A stretch of DNA of 20,000 nt, taken from IMG/VR virus record IMGVR_UViG_3300028377_000002; one strand, written 5' to 3'. A program made the translations under genes and the position numbers. This document shows, piece by piece, positions 2,184 to 20,000 of the stretch; within the stretch, counting starts at the first letter, position 1; each line of letters starts with the position of its first letter. This DNA is from an uncultured virus (IMG/VR IMGVR_UViG_3300028377_000002) (taxonomy: Duplodnaviria > Heunggongvirae > Uroviricota > Caudoviricetes). Below the pieces are notes generated by a model that saw nothing but the letters and a program-made list of their open reading frames with translations, had not been told where the DNA came from and ran no database searches.

Positions 2184-3314
2184 ATGGAATTATCAGTAGT
2201 AACATACATCAAAAAACACGGTTTAGAAAAAACAGTGGAAGACTTTAAGTTGAAGTGTAAAGATTACGGACATAAAATTCTTTTAAAATATGACCAATTA
2301 GAATCCGATATGGCTTTTATGGAAGCTAGAGAATGTCGTGGTTTGATTTTAGAAAAAGATACTTGGAAAGTCATGAGCCTTGCTTTCATCCGCTTCTTTA
2401 ATTCAGCCGAAGGTCACGCATCTAAGATTGATTGGAATACTGCCATTATATTTTCAAAAGAAGATGGCTCTTTAATTCAATTATATTGGGATTGGGTTAC
2501 CGAAAGATGGTGTGTTGGTACAAGCGGTATGGCTGAGGCTGAAGGTGAGGTAAATGAAAAAGAAGGTACTACATTCTCAAGATTATTTTGGGATACTGTT
2601 GGAGGTAGATATGGTTTTAATGTTACTAACTTAGTTAAAGGTAGGACCTATGCTTTTGAATTAATGACACCATATAATATCGTTGTAAAACCACATGGTG
2701 TTTCTTCAGTAGCTTTATTGGGTGTTAGAGATTTAAGGTCTTTAAATGAGTTAACATACACTCAATTAGAGTTGGTGGCTAAAGATATAAACGTACCATT
2801 AGTTGAAGTAATCGATATTAATGCTTCAAACGCTGGTCACTTAATGGGAACTTTTGAAGGTATGCCTTTTACAGAAGAAGGTTATGTAGTTTGTGATGCT
2901 AATTTCAATAGAATTAAAATTAAGAACCCAGCTTATGTAGCGATGCATCACACTAAAAGTAAATTAGGTAATCATCACATTTTAGAAGTGTTGAAAACTA
3001 ATGAGATAGATGAATGGGTAGCTACATTTCCAGAGAGGTCCGAAGAAATAATAAACCTTAAAAATGCTTTAAATAAGCTAACGGATGATTTGAAAAATTC
3101 TTGGGTAGAATTAAAACCGTACAAACCAAAAAATATAACTAAAAGTGAACAAAAAAAGTTTGCTATGAAAGTTTTTGAGGTGAATAATAAGAATTTTTCA
3201 AATAAGAGACATACTGGTTTATTCTTTGGACTCAAAGATGGTAAAATCAAATCGGTTAGAGATTATATAAACAATATGAACAATAAAGAGTTATATAATA
3301 TCCTAACTAATTAA
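2184..3314 (+). CDS. T4 Rnl1-like RNA ligase
   Basis: ECRGLIL, RFFN, KEDGSL (motif I), FEL, EGYVV, KIK motifs. Confidence 0.9.
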   Translation: MELSVVTYIKKHGLEKTVEDFKLKCKDYGHKILLKYDQLESDMAFMEARECRGLILEKDTWKVMSLAFIRFFNSAEGHASKIDWNTAIIFSKEDGSLIQLYWDWVTERWCVGTSGMAEAEGEVNEKEGTTFSRLFWDTVGGRYGFNVTNLVKGRTYAFELMTPYNIVVKPHGVSSVALLGVRDLRSLNELTYTQLELVAKDINVPLVEVIDINASNAGHLMGTFEGMPFTEEGYVVCDANFNRIKIKNPAYVAMHHTKSKLGNHHILEVLKTNEIDEWVATFPERSEEIINLKNALNKLTDDLKNSWVELKPYKPKNITKSEQKKFAMKVFEVNNKNFSNKRHTGLFFGLKDGKIKSVRDYINNMNNKELYNILTN

Positions 3315-3716: not shown

Positions 3717-3916
3717 AAACATTACCTAAGACAGCTTCCAACCCTGATGCTATCATAGTCAAGTTAGCTGATAGAATTGCCAACATTGAACATGGTGGTA
3801 AAGTTGAAATGTATGCTAAAGAGTATGATGAATTTAAAGGCGCTTTACAGTTGACCTCACCATCATCCGCAGCAGATATGTGGAAATACTTAGATAATTT
3901 ATTACTAATTAAATGA
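3713..3916 (+). pseudogene. C-terminal remnant of a RelA/SpoT-type HD-domain hydrolase (SAH/Mesh1-like)
   Basis: AIIVKLADRIAN motif begins about 13 residues after the start; the HD/EDT catalytic half is missing. Confidence 0.65.
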
Positions 3917-4623
3917 ATAAAGAAGATTTAATACATTTACGTGATACGCTTAAAGTAAGTGGTGAATTAAAAGGTAAAGATAAAGAAACTATGAGTAAAG
4001 TCTTAAAAAAAGAGATGAGTGAACACATCTTAAAAGAACTTAATATCGAAGGGGAAGTACTAGCTATTTTCCCTTACGGTTCTCGTGTGTATGGAACAGC
4101 CACTAAAGATTCAGACCGTGATTACATCATAGTCATGAAAAGTGCTATGTTGGATAATGGAGCATTCAGAAATAATGCAATATCTAATGAAGACTATTCA
4201 ATTCAAGGTGTAGTTTATTCCAGAGGTGGTTTTATAGATGCCATTAATAGATACGAGATAGGTGCGCTAGAGTGTATATCTTTACCTGAAGATAAAGTTA
4301 TTCTTAAGAAATGGCCATTTAAGGTTACTAAATGGAACGAGAAGGAAATGATTAAAGCTATCATAAGAAAAGCATCGGACAGTTTACATTATTCAAAAAT
4401 GGCATCTAAGAACGGTGATAACGAACGTGCTATTAAAAGTATGTATCACTCTCTTAGAATATTAAGCTTTGGTCTACAATTAAAAGAATATAAGAAAATA
4501 GTAGACTTTAAAGCGTCAAATGATTTGTATGACATATTTATGCATATAGAGTCAGAAGGTTTTGACACTAGAGATTACTTTGATATGTTTGAGTATTTAT
4601 CTAACATGTTAAAAAATAAATAA
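3913..4623 (+). CDS. Pol-beta superfamily nucleotidyltransferase
   Basis: PYGSRVYGTATKDSDRDY (GS...DxD) motif followed by a helical C-terminal domain. Confidence 0.85.
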   Translation: MNKEDLIHLRDTLKVSGELKGKDKETMSKVLKKEMSEHILKELNIEGEVLAIFPYGSRVYGTATKDSDRDYIIVMKSAMLDNGAFRNNAISNEDYSIQGVVYSRGGFIDAINRYEIGALECISLPEDKVILKKWPFKVTKWNEKEMIKAIIRKASDSLHYSKMASKNGDNERAIKSMYHSLRILSFGLQLKEYKKIVDFKASNDLYDIFMHIESEGFDTRDYFDMFEYLSNMLKNK

Positions 4624-4656: not shown

Positions 4657-4664
4657 TATATTTG
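4657..4664 (+). promoter_or_regulatory. -7 promoter box ahead of the suppressor tRNA / PTH2 unit
   Basis: TATATTTG 13 nt before the tRNA; upstream TTG at 4642 has a non-canonical 12-nt spacer. Confidence 0.55.
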
Positions 4665-4677
4665 CAATGGAATAATT

Positions 4678-4750
4678 GGTCGATTAGCTCAGTTGGAAGA
4701 GCGGGAGATTCTAAACCTCTTAGTCATCGGTTCGAACCCGATATCGACCA
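4678..4750 (+). tRNA. amber suppressor tRNA, anticodon CTA (4711-4713)
   Basis: Acceptor GGTCGAT/ATCGACC, A73; D-arm GCTC/GAGC; anticodon stem GGAGA/CCTCT (G-U and A.C ends) with loop TT-CTA-AA; T-arm ATCGG-TTCGAAC-CCGAT; 73 nt, no encoded CCA. Confidence 0.88.
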
Positions 4751-6301: not shown

Positions 6302-6373
6302 GCGCAGGTTCCAGAGCGGCTATGGTGTTGCCCCGCAAGGCAATGTAGGGTGGTTCGAATCCATCCCTGTGCT
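6302..6373 (+). tRNA. atypical tRNA or pseudo-tRNA (U73, Gly/Cys-like body) with aberrant anticodon loop
   Basis: Acceptor GCGCAGG/CCTGTGC plus T73; T-arm GGTGG-TTCGAAT-CCATC; anticodon stem GTTGC/GCAAT closes an 8-nt loop CCCGCAAG with no U33. Confidence 0.7.
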
Positions 6374-6954: not shown

Positions 6955-8376
6955 ATGGAAATTAAAATAATTTTTGATGAAATAGCTAATACTTCTGGTA
7001 ACAACGCTAAGATGGATGTGCTTCGTAAGTATAAAGACAATCAACTACTTCAAAAGGTATTATATTTAATCAAGTCTAAAAGGGTTAAGTTTTTCATTAA
7101 ACAAATACCTGAATATACTCCTTGGGGTTCTAATTCTAATTATTCGCTATCAGAAGCTGTTAATGATTTAAAAGTCCTTAGTAATAGAGAAGAAACAGGT
7201 CAATCGGCTGTAGCCTATCTTAAGCAGACTTTAGAAAATTTATCGACCGATGACGCTTATATCATTGAAAGAATTATTGATAAAGACCCTAAGATTGGTT
7301 TAGGTAGAACTTTTATTAATAAAGTAATTCCTAATCTTATTGAAAAAACACCATATCAAGGTGCTAAGTCTTTCAGTGAGAAGTTAGCTAGAAAAATTTT
7401 CAAAGATTATGGTTATGCATATAGTGATGTTAAGATGGACGGCCGTTATGCTAATGCCATTATTCAATCTGGTCAAGTAGAATTCGAATCAAGACAAGGT
7501 GAAACAACTTACATTCCAGTAGATTCTCTATTAATTAGAGAGTTATCTAAATTTGGTGATGGTGTACTAAATGGTGAATTAACTATAATTAATGATGATG
7601 GTTCGACAATGGATAGGTACACGTCTAACGGTATTATAGCTTCGATAGTAGATATCGAGGGTTGTGGTAAAATGGGTGATAGAAATGATGAAGATACCTC
7701 TAAAAAGTTATCTGCGTTCAGAAAGAAGCATGGTGATTTTAAAGAAGCTGTCGACAAAATAAGATATACAGTGTGGGATTCAATCACATTAGAAGACTAC
7801 TTCAATAAGAAGTCAGATATTGAGTATAGAAAGCGTTTAGATTATCTATTCAAAAAGACACCTATATTAGAATGCACTAGAGTTGCAATGGTAGAACGTC
7901 TTAAGGTTTATTCATATGAAGAGGCTATGACTCACTTCCAAAATATTTTGTTGAGAGGTGAAGAGGGTACTATATTGAAAGCACCTTTGGCCACTTGGAA
8001 AGATGGTAAACCAAATACTCAAATTAAGCTAAAAATTGAAGTTAATTTAGATTTGAAAGTGATTGGATTTGAGTACGGAAATAAAGGTACTAAAAATGAA
8101 AATGTGTATAGTACAATAAATCTTGAATCGTCTTGCGGAAATCTGCGCACTAATGCGTCTGGGATGAAAGAAGGTATGATGAAAGAAATAACAGAACGTG
8201 CTGATGAATTACTTGGTACTGTGGTTGAGATTCGGTGTTGTGGTTTATCACAAAGTAGTGATGGGGATTATTCTACGCTCCACCCATCAGTGGTTGAATT
8301 AAGAGACGATAAAACCGAAGCTAATTCATTAGCTGAATGTATTAAAATAAGTAATGCTGCTATGGGATTATCTTAA
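6955..8376 (+). CDS. ATP-dependent DNA ligase (phage type)
   Basis: KMDGRY motif I, LNGEL, EGTILK, KLK motifs and C-terminal OB fold ending in LRDDK. Confidence 0.92.
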   Translation: MEIKIIFDEIANTSGNNAKMDVLRKYKDNQLLQKVLYLIKSKRVKFFIKQIPEYTPWGSNSNYSLSEAVNDLKVLSNREETGQSAVAYLKQTLENLSTDDAYIIERIIDKDPKIGLGRTFINKVIPNLIEKTPYQGAKSFSEKLARKIFKDYGYAYSDVKMDGRYANAIIQSGQVEFESRQGETTYIPVDSLLIRELSKFGDGVLNGELTIINDDGSTMDRYTSNGIIASIVDIEGCGKMGDRNDEDTSKKLSAFRKKHGDFKEAVDKIRYTVWDSITLEDYFNKKSDIEYRKRLDYLFKKTPILECTRVAMVERLKVYSYEEAMTHFQNILLRGEEGTILKAPLATWKDGKPNTQIKLKIEVNLDLKVIGFEYGNKGTKNENVYSTINLESSCGNLRTNASGMKEGMMKEITERADELLGTVVEIRCCGLSQSSDGDYSTLHPSVVELRDDKTEANSLAECIKISNAAMGLS

Positions 8377-8615: not shown

Positions 8616-9641
8616 ATGAAAAAATTTAGTAAGTTCCCAAAAATTGGGCAATTTAGACAAACAGTGAAAGAAGCTAAACTAAGAAACTCTTACATTGGTA
8701 AGGATGATGATGGTGAACCTATCTTTGACAAAACAAAGGCAACACCAGTAATCAACTTCAAGGGTACGGTAAAGTTACACGGTACAAACGCAGGTGTAGG
8801 TCATACCCCTGAAGATGGTATCTGGGCGCAATCTAGAAATAACATTATTACTGTAGATAACGATAATGCTGGGTTCGCCAAATTCGTTCATAGTAATGAA
8901 GAAACTTTCATTGAATTAATGAATGAGATTAGAGTAGAGAACTCAAAAATAGGCGTTAAAGATGCGGTTTACATTTTTGGTGAATGGGTAGGTAAATCAA
9001 TCCAAAAAGGTGTTGCTATTTCTCAGTTAGAAAAAAGCTTCTTCATTTTTGATGTTAAGGTGGTGCCAGAAGATGAGTCTGAACCATACCACTTAGACTC
9101 ACATTACCTAAAATCCAAAGATAACAAAATCTTTAACATTGAAGACTTTGAAACTTATGAGATGGAAATCGATTTTGAGCAACCTGAGAGCGCTCAAAAC
9201 AAATTAGGTGAGCTAACCATGCAAGTTGAAGAAAAGTGTCCTGTGGCCAAAGAATTTGGCTTTGAAGGTGTAGGTGAGGGTATTGTATGGTCAGGTAAGT
9301 TAGGAAATCACAATCTACTGTTTAAAGTGAAGGGTGAGAAGCATAGTGTTTCTAAAGTAAAAACCTTAGCTAAGGTAGATACGGAAAAACTTAACTCTAT
9401 CAATGAGTTTGTTGATTATGCCATAACAGAAAACAGATTCAACCAAGCATTAGGTGTGGTCTTTCCAGATGGTAATATTGATATCAAAAAATTAGGTGAT
9501 ACAATCAAGTGGGTTGTTAGCGATGTACTAGCTGAAGAAAGCGATGTACTAAAAGATAATAATCTTGAACCTAAAGATATCGGTAAATACGTAGCTGCAA
9601 AGGTTAAAAAAATGTTCTTTGCGGAGTATAATAAATTCTAA
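8616..9641 (+). CDS. Rnl2-family RNA ligase
   Basis: KLHGTNAG motif I, QSRN, FGEW, FDVK, EGIVW, FKVK. Confidence 0.88.
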   Translation: MKKFSKFPKIGQFRQTVKEAKLRNSYIGKDDDGEPIFDKTKATPVINFKGTVKLHGTNAGVGHTPEDGIWAQSRNNIITVDNDNAGFAKFVHSNEETFIELMNEIRVENSKIGVKDAVYIFGEWVGKSIQKGVAISQLEKSFFIFDVKVVPEDESEPYHLDSHYLKSKDNKIFNIEDFETYEMEIDFEQPESAQNKLGELTMQVEEKCPVAKEFGFEGVGEGIVWSGKLGNHNLLFKVKGEKHSVSKVKTLAKVDTEKLNSINEFVDYAITENRFNQALGVVFPDGNIDIKKLGDTIKWVVSDVLAEESDVLKDNNLEPKDIGKYVAAKVKKMFFAEYNKF

Positions 9642-16239: not shown

Positions 16240-17280
16240 ATGGGAGGAAGAGCATTAAAAAACGTAGAAACAAGAAGGTACTCTAGAGAAGAGTTTGATA
16301 CAGTAAGTAAAAAGCTTGTTGATACTCTATCTGAAACCTTTGAACAAGTCGACGTACCTCTATTTTACACAAATAAAGAATCATTTGGTGACATCGATAT
16401 TATTATAAGTAACGAAGATGTAGAGGGCGAAGAATTGGATGGGTCATTTGTTAGGGAATACATAGAAGTAAACTTTAACCCAAATGAGATTTTCCATAAT
16501 GGTAACTCTTGGTCCTTTGATTATAAGGAAGTTCAAGTAGACTTAATCTTAGTAGACGCAGATGACTTCGATTCAAACTATCATTATCTAGCTTATAATG
16601 ACCTAGGTAATTTTATAGGTAGATTAGCTCAATCAATTGGTGTTAAGTTTGGTCAAGAAGGTTTATGGTACAATAGATACGGTAAGGACAATAGCACCAA
16701 ACATAAGATAATGATATCTAAGGATTATCGAAAGATTTATTCCTTTTTAGGTTTAGATTATGATAGGTTTTTAGAAGGGTTTGAAGGATTAGAAGATATT
16801 TTTAAGTTCACAACAACCTCACATTTATTTAACCCTGAAAGGTTTAAATTAAGTAATCTTAATAAAGTAAATCGTGAGAGAAACCTTAAAAGGAAATCCT
16901 ACATGTCATTTTTAGAATACATAGAGGGTATGGGCCCTAATTATGACTATGATAAGGAATATATTGAGGTAACTAAAGAAAATATAGTTGACATACTGAT
17001 AGACCATTTTCCTGAGGCTAATATTGAGTATTATCTAGCGGTAATCGATTATAAAGAGGCGGTAGATAAATTAGTTAAATTAAAATTTAACGGTGGTATG
17101 ATTAAGGATATGTATAATCTAGAAGGTAAAGAAATAGGTGATGCAATTAGAGCATTCCAAGAATACATTAATACCGTATACGTTGAATGTGAAATAGGTG
17201 ATAACTTTAATAACTACATCATTAATACTTCAGAGTATAAAATCTGGAAAACCTTTGAAATAGTCAATATAATTAAATAA
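16240..17280 (+). CDS. putative nucleotidyltransferase (Pol-X/Pol-beta-like), jumbo-phage type
   Basis: MGGRALK start, KESFGDIDII, QVDLI, YNDLGN motifs. Confidence 0.72.
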   Translation: MGGRALKNVETRRYSREEFDTVSKKLVDTLSETFEQVDVPLFYTNKESFGDIDIIISNEDVEGEELDGSFVREYIEVNFNPNEIFHNGNSWSFDYKEVQVDLILVDADDFDSNYHYLAYNDLGNFIGRLAQSIGVKFGQEGLWYNRYGKDNSTKHKIMISKDYRKIYSFLGLDYDRFLEGFEGLEDIFKFTTTSHLFNPERFKLSNLNKVNRERNLKRKSYMSFLEYIEGMGPNYDYDKEYIEVTKENIVDILIDHFPEANIEYYLAVIDYKEAVDKLVKLKFNGGMIKDMYNLEGKEIGDAIRAFQEYINTVYVECEIGDNFNNYIINTSEYKIWKTFEIVNIIK

Positions 17281-17581
17281 ATGGGTTACCAAGTTCATTT
17301 AACATTTGAAAGTTATCATGTAAAGACTGACACTCAGAAATAAAATTCTGGGTGTCTTTATTTTCAAGTTGAAACCATTCACCCTTCATTCTCTTATCGC
17401 TGTATGTCCTATGCATTACACTTTCAAGTTTTCTAAAATATTCAGATTTAAATTCAGCCACAACTTTAATTTCCTCAGCATTACCTGTTTGAAGTTCTTT
17501 AACCCTGCTGGTACTCTTTCTTGTTGTAATACCAATTTTATAATTTCCGTTACCGTCTTTTAGTAAATAAATGATTCCCAT
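17273..17581 (-). CDS. GIY-YIG superfamily (T5orf172/MUG113-like) protein; start moved to 17581
   Basis: IYLL...YKIGIT...RVKELQTGN...LESVMH...GEWF. Confidence 0.88.
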   Translation of the reverse strand: MGIIYLLKDGNGNYKIGITTRKSTSRVKELQTGNAEEIKVVAEFKSEYFRKLESVMHRTYSDKRMKGEWFQLENKDTQNFISECQSLHDNFQMLNELGNPFI

Positions 17582-17643
17582 AAAGTTCACTTTTAGATGA
17601 TGTTAAGTATAGATATTAAGGATAAAAAGTAAAGGTGTAACCC

Positions 17644-18833: not shown

Positions 18834-18864
18834 TTTGTTTAAGTAAAATGTTTTAGTATATTTG
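18834..18864 (+). promoter_or_regulatory. promoter of the leader / tRNA cluster
   Basis: TTTG(18834-18837)-N19-TATATTTG(18857-18864). Confidence 0.75.
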
Positions 18865-18911
18865 TACTATATATTAATAACAAAGAAGCGAAAGCTCAAA
18901 ATAAAAAGCAA

Positions 18912-19004
18912 ATGAAAAATTTAGTTAACTTATTATCTTTATGTCTGTTGGTGGTAGTCACCAGCCCATCGAGCTATGCAGTTAACTCAAGTTATTTTTC
19001 ATGA
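18912..19004 (+). CDS. putative 30-aa attenuator leader peptide MKNLVNLLSLCLLVVVTSPSSYAVNSSYFS
   Basis: Short ORF between promoter and terminator; contains ATCGAGCT (18968-18975), complementary to the terminator 5' arm. Confidence 0.65.
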   Translation: MKNLVNLLSLCLLVVVTSPSSYAVNSSYFS

Positions 19005-19026
19005 TAACATAAAAGTACAACTAAGT

Positions 19027-19060
19027 AAAGCTCGATAGAAATATCGGGCTTTTTTTTTTT
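19027..19060 (+). terminator. intrinsic terminator / attenuator directly before the tRNA cluster
   Basis: AAAGCTCGATA-GAAA-TATCGGGCTTT hairpin, T11 run at 19050-19060. Confidence 0.85.
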
Positions 19061-19102
19061 GCCTATGTGCCTGAGTGGTCAAAAGGGGCGGTCTGCAAAA
19101 CC
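19061..19102 (+). pseudogene. 5' part of split tRNA-Cys(GCA)
   Basis: GCCTATG acceptor strand, D-arm, GCGGT-CTGCAAA-ACC, then the sequence breaks into AT-rich DNA. Confidence 0.8.
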
Positions 19103-19114
19103 TATTTTTAAAAT

Positions 19115-19188
19115 GTGTAAGTAATCAAGTGGTCCAAGATAGAAGGTTGCAACCCTGAAAGTCGTCAGTTCGAATCTGACCTTACACT
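19115..19188 (+). tRNA. tRNA-Cys(GCA), divergent, weak anticodon stem
   Basis: GTGTAAG/CTTACAC plus T73; loop TT-GCA-AC (anticodon 19149-19151); T-arm GTCAG-TTCGAAT-CTGAC; only 3 Watson-Crick pairs in the anticodon stem. Confidence 0.75.
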
Positions 19189-19254
19189 CACTAATTGCAA
19201 AAGTTTTTTAACTTTTGCAGACTTATAAGACATTTATATAGAAATATAGGTGTC

Positions 19255-19701
19255 ATGGAAATGAAAAGTTGTAGTAAATGTAAAGTAGAAAAAGAAATAG
19301 AAGCGTACTTTTTTAGAAATAAAAAAACTGGTAAACGTCACGCTCAATGTAAAAGTTGTTATAATGAAGTTAGAAAATATAAAGAACATTATGAAAAATA
19401 TAAAGATGAATATAAGGATAGGGCAAATAAAAGAATTAAAACGTTAATTGAAGAGAATAGGATTAATATGTTAACCTTATTAAAACAACATACTTGTATG
19501 GATTGTGGTGAGGATAATATAATAACATTTGAGTTTGACCATAGAGATAGAAATGAAAAAAAATATGGTATTGCAACAATGTTAAAACATTTTAAGTGGG
19601 AACAAATATTAGAAGAGATGAAAAAATGTGACATTGTTTGTGCTAACTGCCATAGAATCAGAACAACAAATCAATTTAATTGGTATAAACTTGATAACTA
19701 A
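19255..19701 (+). CDS. HNH endonuclease (free-standing homing type); start ATG 19255 or 19261
   Basis: N-terminal CSKC..CKSC zinc finger; CMDCG...EFDH...VCANCHRIRT. Confidence 0.9.
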   Translation: MEMKSCSKCKVEKEIEAYFFRNKKTGKRHAQCKSCYNEVRKYKEHYEKYKDEYKDRANKRIKTLIEENRINMLTLLKQHTCMDCGEDNIITFEFDHRDRNEKKYGIATMLKHFKWEQILEEMKKCDIVCANCHRIRTTNQFNWYKLDN

Positions 19702-19733
19702 TCTCATCGTTGGTTCGAATCCAACTATATGCT
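19702..19733 (+). pseudogene. 3' part of split tRNA-Cys
   Basis: TC-TCATC-GTTGG-TTCGAAT-CCAAC-TATATGC-T; pairs with 19061-19067 at 6 of 7 positions; U73. Confidence 0.75.
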
Positions 19734-19745
19734 CAAATATAAAAT

Positions 19746-19830
19746 ACCCCTATAGCTCAGTGGTAAGAGCACTTCCTTTACACGGAAGAGGCGAATAGTA
19801 TTAACGGGAGTTCGATTCTCTCTGGGGGTA
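19746..19830 (+). tRNA. tRNA-Val(TAC) with unusually long (17-nt) variable region
   Basis: ACCCCTA/TGGGGGT plus A73; CTTCC-TTTACAC-GGAAG; variable region AGGCGAATAGTATTAAC; GGGAG-TTCGATT-CTCTC. Confidence 0.85.
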
Positions 19831-19834
19831 CAAT

Positions 19835-19915
19835 GGTAATATGACAGGGCTTATACTAGTTCGCTTGGGTCAAGGGTAATGCATTTACTTATGGGTTCGA
19901 TTCCTATTATTATCA
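19835..19915 (+). tRNA. degenerate tRNA-like element (acceptor and T arms intact, anticodon unassignable)
   Basis: GGTAATA/TATTATC plus A; ATGGG-TTCGATT-CCTAT; non-canonical D and anticodon arms. Confidence 0.5.
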
Positions 19916-20000
19916 CTAAATATCTCTATGCCGCACGCTGGAATACGGAACGGTTTAGAGAAAATGGGGGGGGGGGGTTGAGGAAATTGGCAAAGCCTTT

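Follow-up and report, generated by a model that had tools for sequence, protein, structure and literature searches.

The DNA analyzed here is a stretch of 20,000 nucleotides from an uncultured virus of the Caudoviricetes (IMG/VR record IMGVR_UViG_3300028377_000002; hereafter, the window). Close to its end, positions 18834 to 19060 of the plus strand hold a promoter, a short open reading frame (ORF) and an intrinsic terminator that directly precede a block of tRNA genes. We propose that this element is a ribosome-mediated (leader-peptide) transcription attenuator gating a phage tRNA sub-operon, a role that its sequence makes likely; the element is real, as opposed to a product of chance, and is very probably a codon-matched attenuator. 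Computational analysis identified the parts of the element, the competing pairings of its RNA, the correspondence between leader codons and downstream tRNAs, the confinement of this correspondence to one reading frame and the recurrence of the layout in other phages. The switch of termination would consist in translation of the leader and stalling of the ribosome on it.

The leader and the tRNA genes behind it

The promoter that the initial annotation placed upstream of the ORF belongs to a class that is overrepresented in the window. A two-part motif, TTTG followed after 17-21 nt by TAnnTTTG, which corresponds to the Bacteroidota housekeeping promoter, occurs seven times against 1.07 expected (none of 200 shuffles reaches seven), always on the plus strand and in most cases ahead of genes. 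The sigma-70-type consensus of Escherichia coli shows no enrichment in a scan of the window (93 sites, 93.7 expected) and is therefore uninformative here. The copy at 18834-18864 (plus strand) consists of a -33 TTTG (18834-18837), a 19-nt spacer and a -7 TAnnTTTG (18857-18864). From the position of this motif, the transcript is predicted to start near 18869, giving a 5' untranslated leader of 43 nt (18869-18911, plus strand) in which the fold contains a small GNRA-type hairpin at 18887-18896. The leader ORF (18912-19004, plus strand) starts with ATG and comprises, as first annotated, 30 sense codons and a stop codon. After a spacer of 22 nt comes the terminator (19027-19060, plus strand), which fully bears out its initial description as strong and T11-tailed: it has an 11-pair stem (19027-19052) with a 4-nt GAAA loop, a hairpin stability of -13.4 to -13.7 kcal/mol and a T11 tract at 19050-19060.

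The initial annotation also placed the first tRNA at 19061, immediately behind the T tract, and this claim had to be abandoned. No tRNA is called there by ARAGORN or, at E up to 1, by the Rfam tRNA model; the segment 19061-19102 can be aligned in register with the 5' halves of tRNAs through the acceptor, the D arm and the anticodon loop (GCA), where the alignment ends; and in two near-identical relatives (L009 and L010) the same region carries an 8-nt duplication and a 13-nt deletion just before an undamaged tRNA-Cys. Because of the missing calls, the broken alignment and this rearrangement, we consider 19061-19114 (plus strand) to be a tRNA-like 5' fragment with a spacer and not an intact tRNA. 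The first intact gene is tRNA-Cys (GCA; 19115-19189, plus strand; called by ARAGORN and scoring 51.4 bits with the Rfam tRNA model). It is followed by an inserted ORF for an HNH homing endonuclease (19195-19701, plus strand; phrog_2255, E 8e-32 for 19255-19698), by tRNA-Val (UAC) with a long variable region (19746-19831, plus strand; ARAGORN, Rfam 63 bits) and by an odd tRNA-like gene, Pro (UGG), at 19835-19916 (plus strand), which is called at a lowered ARAGORN threshold only. Three tRNA-Leu genes (UAA, CAA, UAG) start just past base 20000, as read from L007 and L008, which represent the window phage in other samples (neighboring protein 99% identical) and are collinear with the window. The set behind the terminator in L008 is thus Cys GCA, Val UAC, Pro-like UGG, Leu UAA, Leu CAA and Leu UAG.

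A promoter of the tRNAs' own would, according to the initial annotation, speak against attenuation. The plus strand contains no -7 motif from 18865 to 20000 and no consensus promoter between the terminator and the tRNAs, non-consensus promoters being possible; the next full motif in both L008 and L001, a related viral contig, lies behind the last tRNA of the unit.

The putative control codons are codons 7-16 of the leader (18930-18959, plus strand), which specify five Leu (UUA, CUG and UUG types), one Ser, one Cys and three Val. The initial annotation described a codon run here that includes Cys and Val and samples isoacceptors unusual for this DNA. The inclusion of Cys and Val, which match downstream tRNAs, stands, whereas the seemingly unusual codons appear to be better explained as matches to the Cys, Val and three Leu tRNAs. 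In the frame of the ORF, 10 of 29 leader codons are decodable by the unit's own tRNAs under strict wobble and 13 of 29 under relaxed wobble; in the other two frames, the strict counts are 4/28 and 3/28, with a range of 3-7 of 28 over both rules. The longest run of cognate residues is seven, with P ~1.5e-4 for a random peptide of the window composition.

Recurrence in other flavobacterial phages

The -7 element and the first 17 transcribed bases of the window unit recur twice in its lineage, in L001 (position 5507) and in L081 (position 1797). In both cases, a different short ORF with a similar beginning follows, then a terminator, then tRNAs; the core of the GNRA-type hairpin is retained in L081, and another hairpin occupies the equivalent place in this second unit of L001 (unit 2). 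The leader of L001 unit 2 contains 12 successive Phe, Glu, Asp or Ala codons, and the tRNAs behind it are Asp, Asp, Phe, Glu and Ala. The leader of L081 contains 13 successive Thr, Tyr, Lys, Gln or Pro codons, and is followed by tRNAs for Pro, Arg, Gln, Tyr, Lys and Thr.

Units of this layout whose leaders are unrelated were found in Tenacibaculum phage Gundel_1 (two), Cellulophaga phage phi17:2 (three) and Maribacter phage Panino (three), where the leaders begin at or beside the predicted 5' end of the transcript. Together with the window, L001 unit 2 and L081, these make up a comparison set of 11 promoter/short-ORF/terminator units from five flavobacterial phage lineages. One type of leader consists of Gln, Arg, Leu, His, Glu and Pro codons and goes with tRNAs for Pro, Glu, Gln, His, Leu, Leu and Arg; a second, with Thr, Lys, Gly, Ile, Val, Asp, Ala and Arg codons, goes with Ala, Lys, Ile, Gly, Met, Asp, Thr, Val and Arg; and a third, with Asn, Tyr, Ser, Trp, Phe and Cys codons, with Tyr, Ser, Ser, Asn, Trp, Phe and Cys. 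Where homologous tRNA sets occur in different phages, the leaders are equal in composition and differ in the order of residues, as expected from selection on codon content and not on the peptide.

The annotations of the cultured phages, among which phi17:2 and Panino grow on non-pathogenic laboratory hosts, already contain several of these leaders as small "hypothetical protein" coding sequences (CDSs) within tRNA clusters, namely 1943-2062 and 3884-3985 in L018 (phi17:2), 507-602 in L019 (Panino) and 1190-1291 in L020. The leader of phi17:2 unit C (L018 3538-3636) is unannotated, and the annotated start of Panino CDS0063 is a TTG located within the promoter. ARAGORN calls a tRNA-Ser that overlaps gp078 of phi17:2, and gp078 is probably no gene.

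The correspondence between leaders and tRNAs is far from random. Over the units, the longest cognate runs span 6-16 residues, with chance probabilities per unit from below 5e-6 to 6e-3 at the amino-acid level. For the seven units with seven distinct tRNA sets, the true pairing of leaders with tRNAs is the unique best among all 5040 permutations. With all 11 units, none of 200,000 permutations reaches the true pairing, either at the amino-acid level or at the codon level (ARAGORN anticodons, strict wobble). The match is also specific to the frame: summed over the 11 units, 123 of 289 codons in the ATG frame are decodable by the unit's own tRNAs, compared with 37 of 278 and 42 of 278 in the two alternative frames.

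A further sample consisted of 60 viral loci chosen solely by a 17-nt promoter/start motif. In this sample, tRNAs lie within 900 nt of seven of the 12 ORFs of at most 40 codons and of none of the 48 longer ORFs (hypergeometric P ~2e-6). Five of these loci are new, non-redundant units, three of which (L028, L031 and L067) show a strong match. The same 17-nt module (the -7 motif, 4 nt and an ATG that opens Met-Lys-Thr) also heads the 48 ordinary longer ORFs (among L021-L080, uncultured phages), so many flavobacterial phage genes seem to start translation at or near the 5' end of the transcript.

The geometry of the units is also constant. In 10 units, the segment predicted to act as antiterminator strand (segment 2, described below) begins at codon 16-23 and the 5' arm of the terminator lies 23-31 nt past the stop codon; in the units read, the gap between the U tract of the terminator and the first tRNA (or fragment of a tRNA) measures 0-12 nt.

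Competing RNA structures and the proposed switch

The alternative structures foreseen in the initial annotation emerged on folding, as a hairpin within the ORF (pairing 1:2) set against the terminator and an antiterminator. In the minimum-energy fold, the ORF folds onto itself from the start codon to the last sense codons (18912-19002; z = -3.56, with none of 200 shuffles equally stable), and the terminator forms a separate hairpin. Segment 1, the predicted anti-antiterminator (18934-18943, plus strand), pairs with 18967-18976 in this long hairpin, so the 1:2 pairing includes the regulatory codons, and segment 2 (18967-18980, plus strand) lies within its 3' half. The two copies of a palindrome for which an alternative stem had been suggested (18923-18930 and 18980-18987) indeed pair with each other in the same fold.

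Segment 2 can pair instead with 19024-19038, which includes the 5' arm of the terminator. The initially noted complementarity of 18968-18975 to 19029-19036 is exact over the 8 nt. The best duplex of the leader (18869-19019) with 19024-19038 has an energy of -15.2 kcal/mol, and none of 2000 shuffles, with a mean of -7.2 and a standard deviation of 1.8, is as strong; this antiterminator duplex rivals the terminator hairpin in strength. Across the comparison set, the complementarity is significant (p <= 0.018) in seven of the 11 units (phi17:2 unit B was not scored). Six ordinary terminators from the window and Gundel_1, subjected to the same test, gave z from -0.4 to +0.7, and none stands out.

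The effect of a stalled ribosome was modeled at equilibrium by folding the RNA with a ribosome-sized block that extends from 15 nt upstream to 12 nt downstream of the first A-site base. For the window, the probability of the terminator is 1.00 without a ribosome, drops to 0.02-0.27 when the A site lies on codons 6-14 and is at least 0.96 from codon 15 to the stop. The positions at which a modeled stall flips the structure thus almost coincide with the Leu/Cys/Val run.

The 11-unit codon match, the complementarity (7/11 units compared with 0/6 ordinary terminators), the constant geometry and the lack of a downstream consensus promoter all support the original proposal of a leader-peptide attenuator, and the following scheme can be envisaged. 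Transcription would start near 18869 from the host-type promoter, and the leader would be translated while RNA polymerase proceeds. If the ribosome runs through, the two halves of the ORF would re-pair behind it (18934-18943 with 18967-18976), the terminator stem at 19027-19052 with its U11 tract would form, and transcription would end ahead of the tRNA genes. A ribosome stalled at about codons 6-14, on Leu, Cys and Val codons that match the tRNAs encoded behind the terminator, would hold segment 1 apart, and the freed segment 2 (18967-18980) would pair with the 5' arm of the terminator and permit read-through into tRNA-Cys, the HNH gene, tRNA-Val and the three tRNA-Leu genes. Such an arrangement would amount to a feedback loop, in which a shortage of the unit's own aminoacyl-tRNAs raises their transcription and plenty shuts it off. 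In nature, the shortage might result from decay of host tRNAs, from a mismatch in codon usage or from a tRNA-cleaving defense; the initial annotation suggested starvation or an anticodon nuclease as the trigger, which may be the case.

A number of observations weigh against this interpretation, some of them concerning the switch and others the codon match. The equilibrium stall model flips in four of the 11 units and fails in the other seven; because of these failures, it supports the window alone. With the 3' arm of the terminator still unmade and the ribosome at the stop codon, the window model gives a probability of 0.98 for pairing of segment 2 with segment 3, the 5' arm of the terminator. 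Since this pairing forms before the 3' arm exists, termination after complete translation of the leader rests on the kinetics of refolding; kinetics decide the outcome in real attenuators. For three units, L001 unit 2 (p 0.22), Panino B (0.66) and Panino C (0.30), the antiterminator falls short of significance, and the leader ORF of Panino B was picked after the peptides had been seen. Under strict wobble, the six Thr codons of the L081 leader are unreadable by its Thr(GGU) tRNA, and two of the new units in the 60-locus sample match poorly (L037, 5/20; L039, 2/30).

The window leader, with its 10-13 cognate codons of 29, is itself the weakest match of the set, and against the Tyr/Ser/Asn/Trp/Phe sets of other units its run still amounts to six. 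Ser, Tyr, Asn and Phe codons, for which no matching tRNA was found in the unit, abound in its 3' half (18960-19004), and the Leu/Val-rich stretch could equally be a signal-peptide-like or membrane segment. Moreover, the three Leu tRNAs fall outside the window and were taken from L007 and L008, and the Pro-like tRNA is doubtful, its counterpart in L001 scoring 25.7 bits, under the Rfam cut-off. The relatives of the leader (L001 and L007-L010), finally, are near-identical and offer no covariation.

These relatives were collected by a search with the neighboring protein, which identified one locus among viral contigs (L001), five in metagenomes (four of them 99% identical) and none among isolate phages. 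In L001, the protein is 77-82% identical and the ORF is identical to that of the window. Compared with the window, the ORF in L007-L010 carries three substitutions (codons 4, 19 and 23), all nonsynonymous and none in codons 7-16. The change at 18967 keeps the 1:2 pair as G-U and, judged by eye, extends the uninterrupted antiterminator pairing by a ninth pair; the remaining two affect positions that are unpaired. The terminator is unchanged in L001 and L007-L010 except for a T run of 9-11. Near-identity combined with three nonsynonymous changes leaves neither covariation nor any indication that the peptide sequence is under selection. When parts of the leader, the fragment and tRNA-Cys were used in exact-pattern scans, no distant relatives of the leader came up, the matches being confined to the same contig or Gundel_1.

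The unmatched part of the window leader may have a historical explanation. Its Ser/Tyr/Asn/Phe-rich tail resembles the leaders that precede the Tyr-Ser-Ser-Asn-Trp-Phe-Cys clusters of other phages. These clusters end with Cys, and in the window unit a tRNA fragment now comes first, ahead of tRNA-Cys. Loss of tRNAs by deletion may have left both this fragment, at 19061, and the tail of the leader as traces.

Among other explanations, the least improbable is that a codon-matched, translated leader acts not on termination but on the processing or stability of the tRNA precursor, for example through access of RNase P or RNase E to the hairpin and U tract. The short distance between the U tract and the first tRNA or fragment fits this possibility, as does the lack of a flip in seven of the 11 equilibrium models. 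We nevertheless consider it unlikely: the stems are canonical, G+C-rich and followed by 5-11 U; the significant complementarity to the 5' arm in seven of 11 units is the hallmark of antitermination; and no processing signal was identified.

Sensing without a ribosome, either by direct binding of tRNA to the codon run in the manner of a T-box or by protein-mediated antitermination, with the ORF being incidental, would have the same outcome, a terminator under the control of tRNA status, and the strong structure of the leader (z -3.56) is compatible with it. In the window, however, neither a T-box (no match at E up to 1) nor any other Rfam family was detected at threshold; the matching codons are confined to the frame that has the ATG and the stop; and runs of 6-16 varied codons are unlike a single specifier, all of which makes such sensing improbable. 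Two sub-threshold Rfam matches, sroB (32.5 bits against a gathering threshold of 44, E 0.66) and ctRNA_p42d (26.1 against 50 bits), rest on the terminator hairpin and were discarded.

That the ORF is an independent small gene or RNA with a promoter and terminator of its own, encoding, for example, a signal-peptide-like, membrane or type I toxin-like peptide, with the tRNAs expressed from constitutive leak or unrecognized promoters, is hardly credible: the hydrophobic Leu/Val core of the peptide, the self-folding of the ORF from start to stop codon and the three nonsynonymous, hairpin-compatible substitutions in near-identical relatives would suit such a gene, but it leaves unexplained why the same promoter and N-terminus head leaders whose composition shifts with the tRNA set behind them, as well as the permutation and frame results and the antiterminator statistics.

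Genomic setting and relation to known systems

The window is A+T-rich (28-35% G+C) and densely coding on the plus strand. Its products include a DNA ligase, two RNA ligases, a nucleotidyltransferase and homing endonucleases, and the best protein matches among isolates (A1-like protein, ~50% identity) come from Tenacibaculum phages PTm1, PTm5 and pT24. No tRNA genes were found in PTm1, and pT24 has four tRNAs, one of them annotated as a suppressor. The window likewise encodes a tRNA with the anticodon CUA, a reader of the amber stop codon (4678-4750, 62 bits); a -7 motif lies 14 nt upstream (4657-4664) and a full motif at 4561-4591, with neither a leader nor a terminator. A marginal tRNA-like match at 6302-6373 (29.5 bits against a cut-off of 29, E 0.014) has an ambiguous anticodon.

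A set of genes suited to tRNA repair and maturation occupies 1362-1832, 2184-3314, 3913-4623 and 8616-9641, with the DNA ligase (6955-8376) alongside. Its members are a kinase/phosphatase-like protein and a nucleotidyltransferase together with two RNA ligases, the first of them Rnl1-like (phrog_562, E 1e-40) and the second matching phrog_548 (E 1e-61), a repertoire that would fit a phage expecting tRNA damage.

Fragments of tRNAs are scattered around the HNH gene (19061-19114, ~19700-19735 and 19918-20000, as well as 3380-3442 in L009 and L010, the 3' pieces being judged by eye). The HNH gene itself is missing in L001 and replaced by other sequence in L009 and L010, and this pattern of fragments and gene presence or absence suggests repeated rearrangement driven by the endonuclease. 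One apparent match, in which the 19061 piece and the 3' piece at ~19700-19735 would form a single interrupted tRNA (six of seven acceptor pairs, by eye), was dropped, the same 5' piece in L001 being accompanied by a 3' piece that does not match. The sole sizeable minus-strand ORF near the leader (17273-17590) matches families of the homing-endonuclease type (phrog_8130, E 2e-20) and has an identical counterpart in L001. At 19966-19977, a run of 12 G, which numbers six in L008 and eight in L007, is either a variable homopolymer or a sequencing artefact.

Leader-peptide attenuators are well known from enterobacterial amino-acid operons, including thr (Thr/Ile codons), ilvGMEDA (Leu/Val/Ile), trp, his, leu and pheA. 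The phage units share with the thr/ilv type the promoter, a short leader ORF with regulatory codons, the pairings 1:2, 2:3 and 3:4 and the intrinsic terminator; in that type, a ribosome stalled for want of an aminoacyl-tRNA selects read-through, and we propose the same here. They differ in that they would control tRNA genes in place of biosynthetic enzymes, so that the sensed molecule is the product itself; in that their leaders mix three to nine amino acids, mirroring the tRNA set; in the Bacteroidota-type promoter and, in several units, the start of translation at or beside the transcript 5' end; and in being phage-borne, with one copy per tRNA sub-cluster.

A closer parallel in terms of target is pheM, the leader attenuator of the pheST (Phe-tRNA synthetase) operon of E. 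coli, which, as proposed for the phage units, subjects a gene of the translation apparatus to leader-peptide attenuation that senses charged tRNA; it is chromosomal, responds to one amino acid and controls a synthetase. T-box riboswitches also convert tRNA status into a choice between terminator and antiterminator in a leader, but they bind uncharged tRNA without a ribosome, possess a conserved specifier loop and T-box sequence, and serve genes for synthetases, transporters and biosynthesis. In phage T4, the tRNA operon reportedly shows sub-cluster-specific control of transcription (work of the 1980s), and its cluster is likewise split into separately controlled transcription units; to our knowledge, neither a leader peptide nor codon matching has been described for it. 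A search of full-text literature, with subscription-only journals outside its scope, found no description of leader-peptide control of tRNA genes. As far as that literature goes, a known mechanism, leader-peptide attenuation, would thus appear here in an unpublished setting.

With moderate confidence, we extend this view to phage tRNA clusters as self-regulating modules, in which each sub-cluster would carry a "test peptide" written in the codons of its own tRNAs, measure the decoding capacity for that codon set and top up only what runs short, including after decay of host tRNAs or attack by a tRNA-cleaving defense, with the composition of the leader co-evolving with the gain and loss of tRNAs. 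If this is correct, the small "hypothetical proteins" in the tRNA clusters of phi17:2 and Panino would have to be re-annotated as regulatory leaders, and such leaders would be compact, tunable, codon-specific sensors that provide a readout, from sequence alone, of the codons that a phage treats as limiting. Phage tRNA genes would then be regulated through a feedback that acts directly on decoding capacity, which bears on what phages carry tRNAs for and at which times they depend on them.

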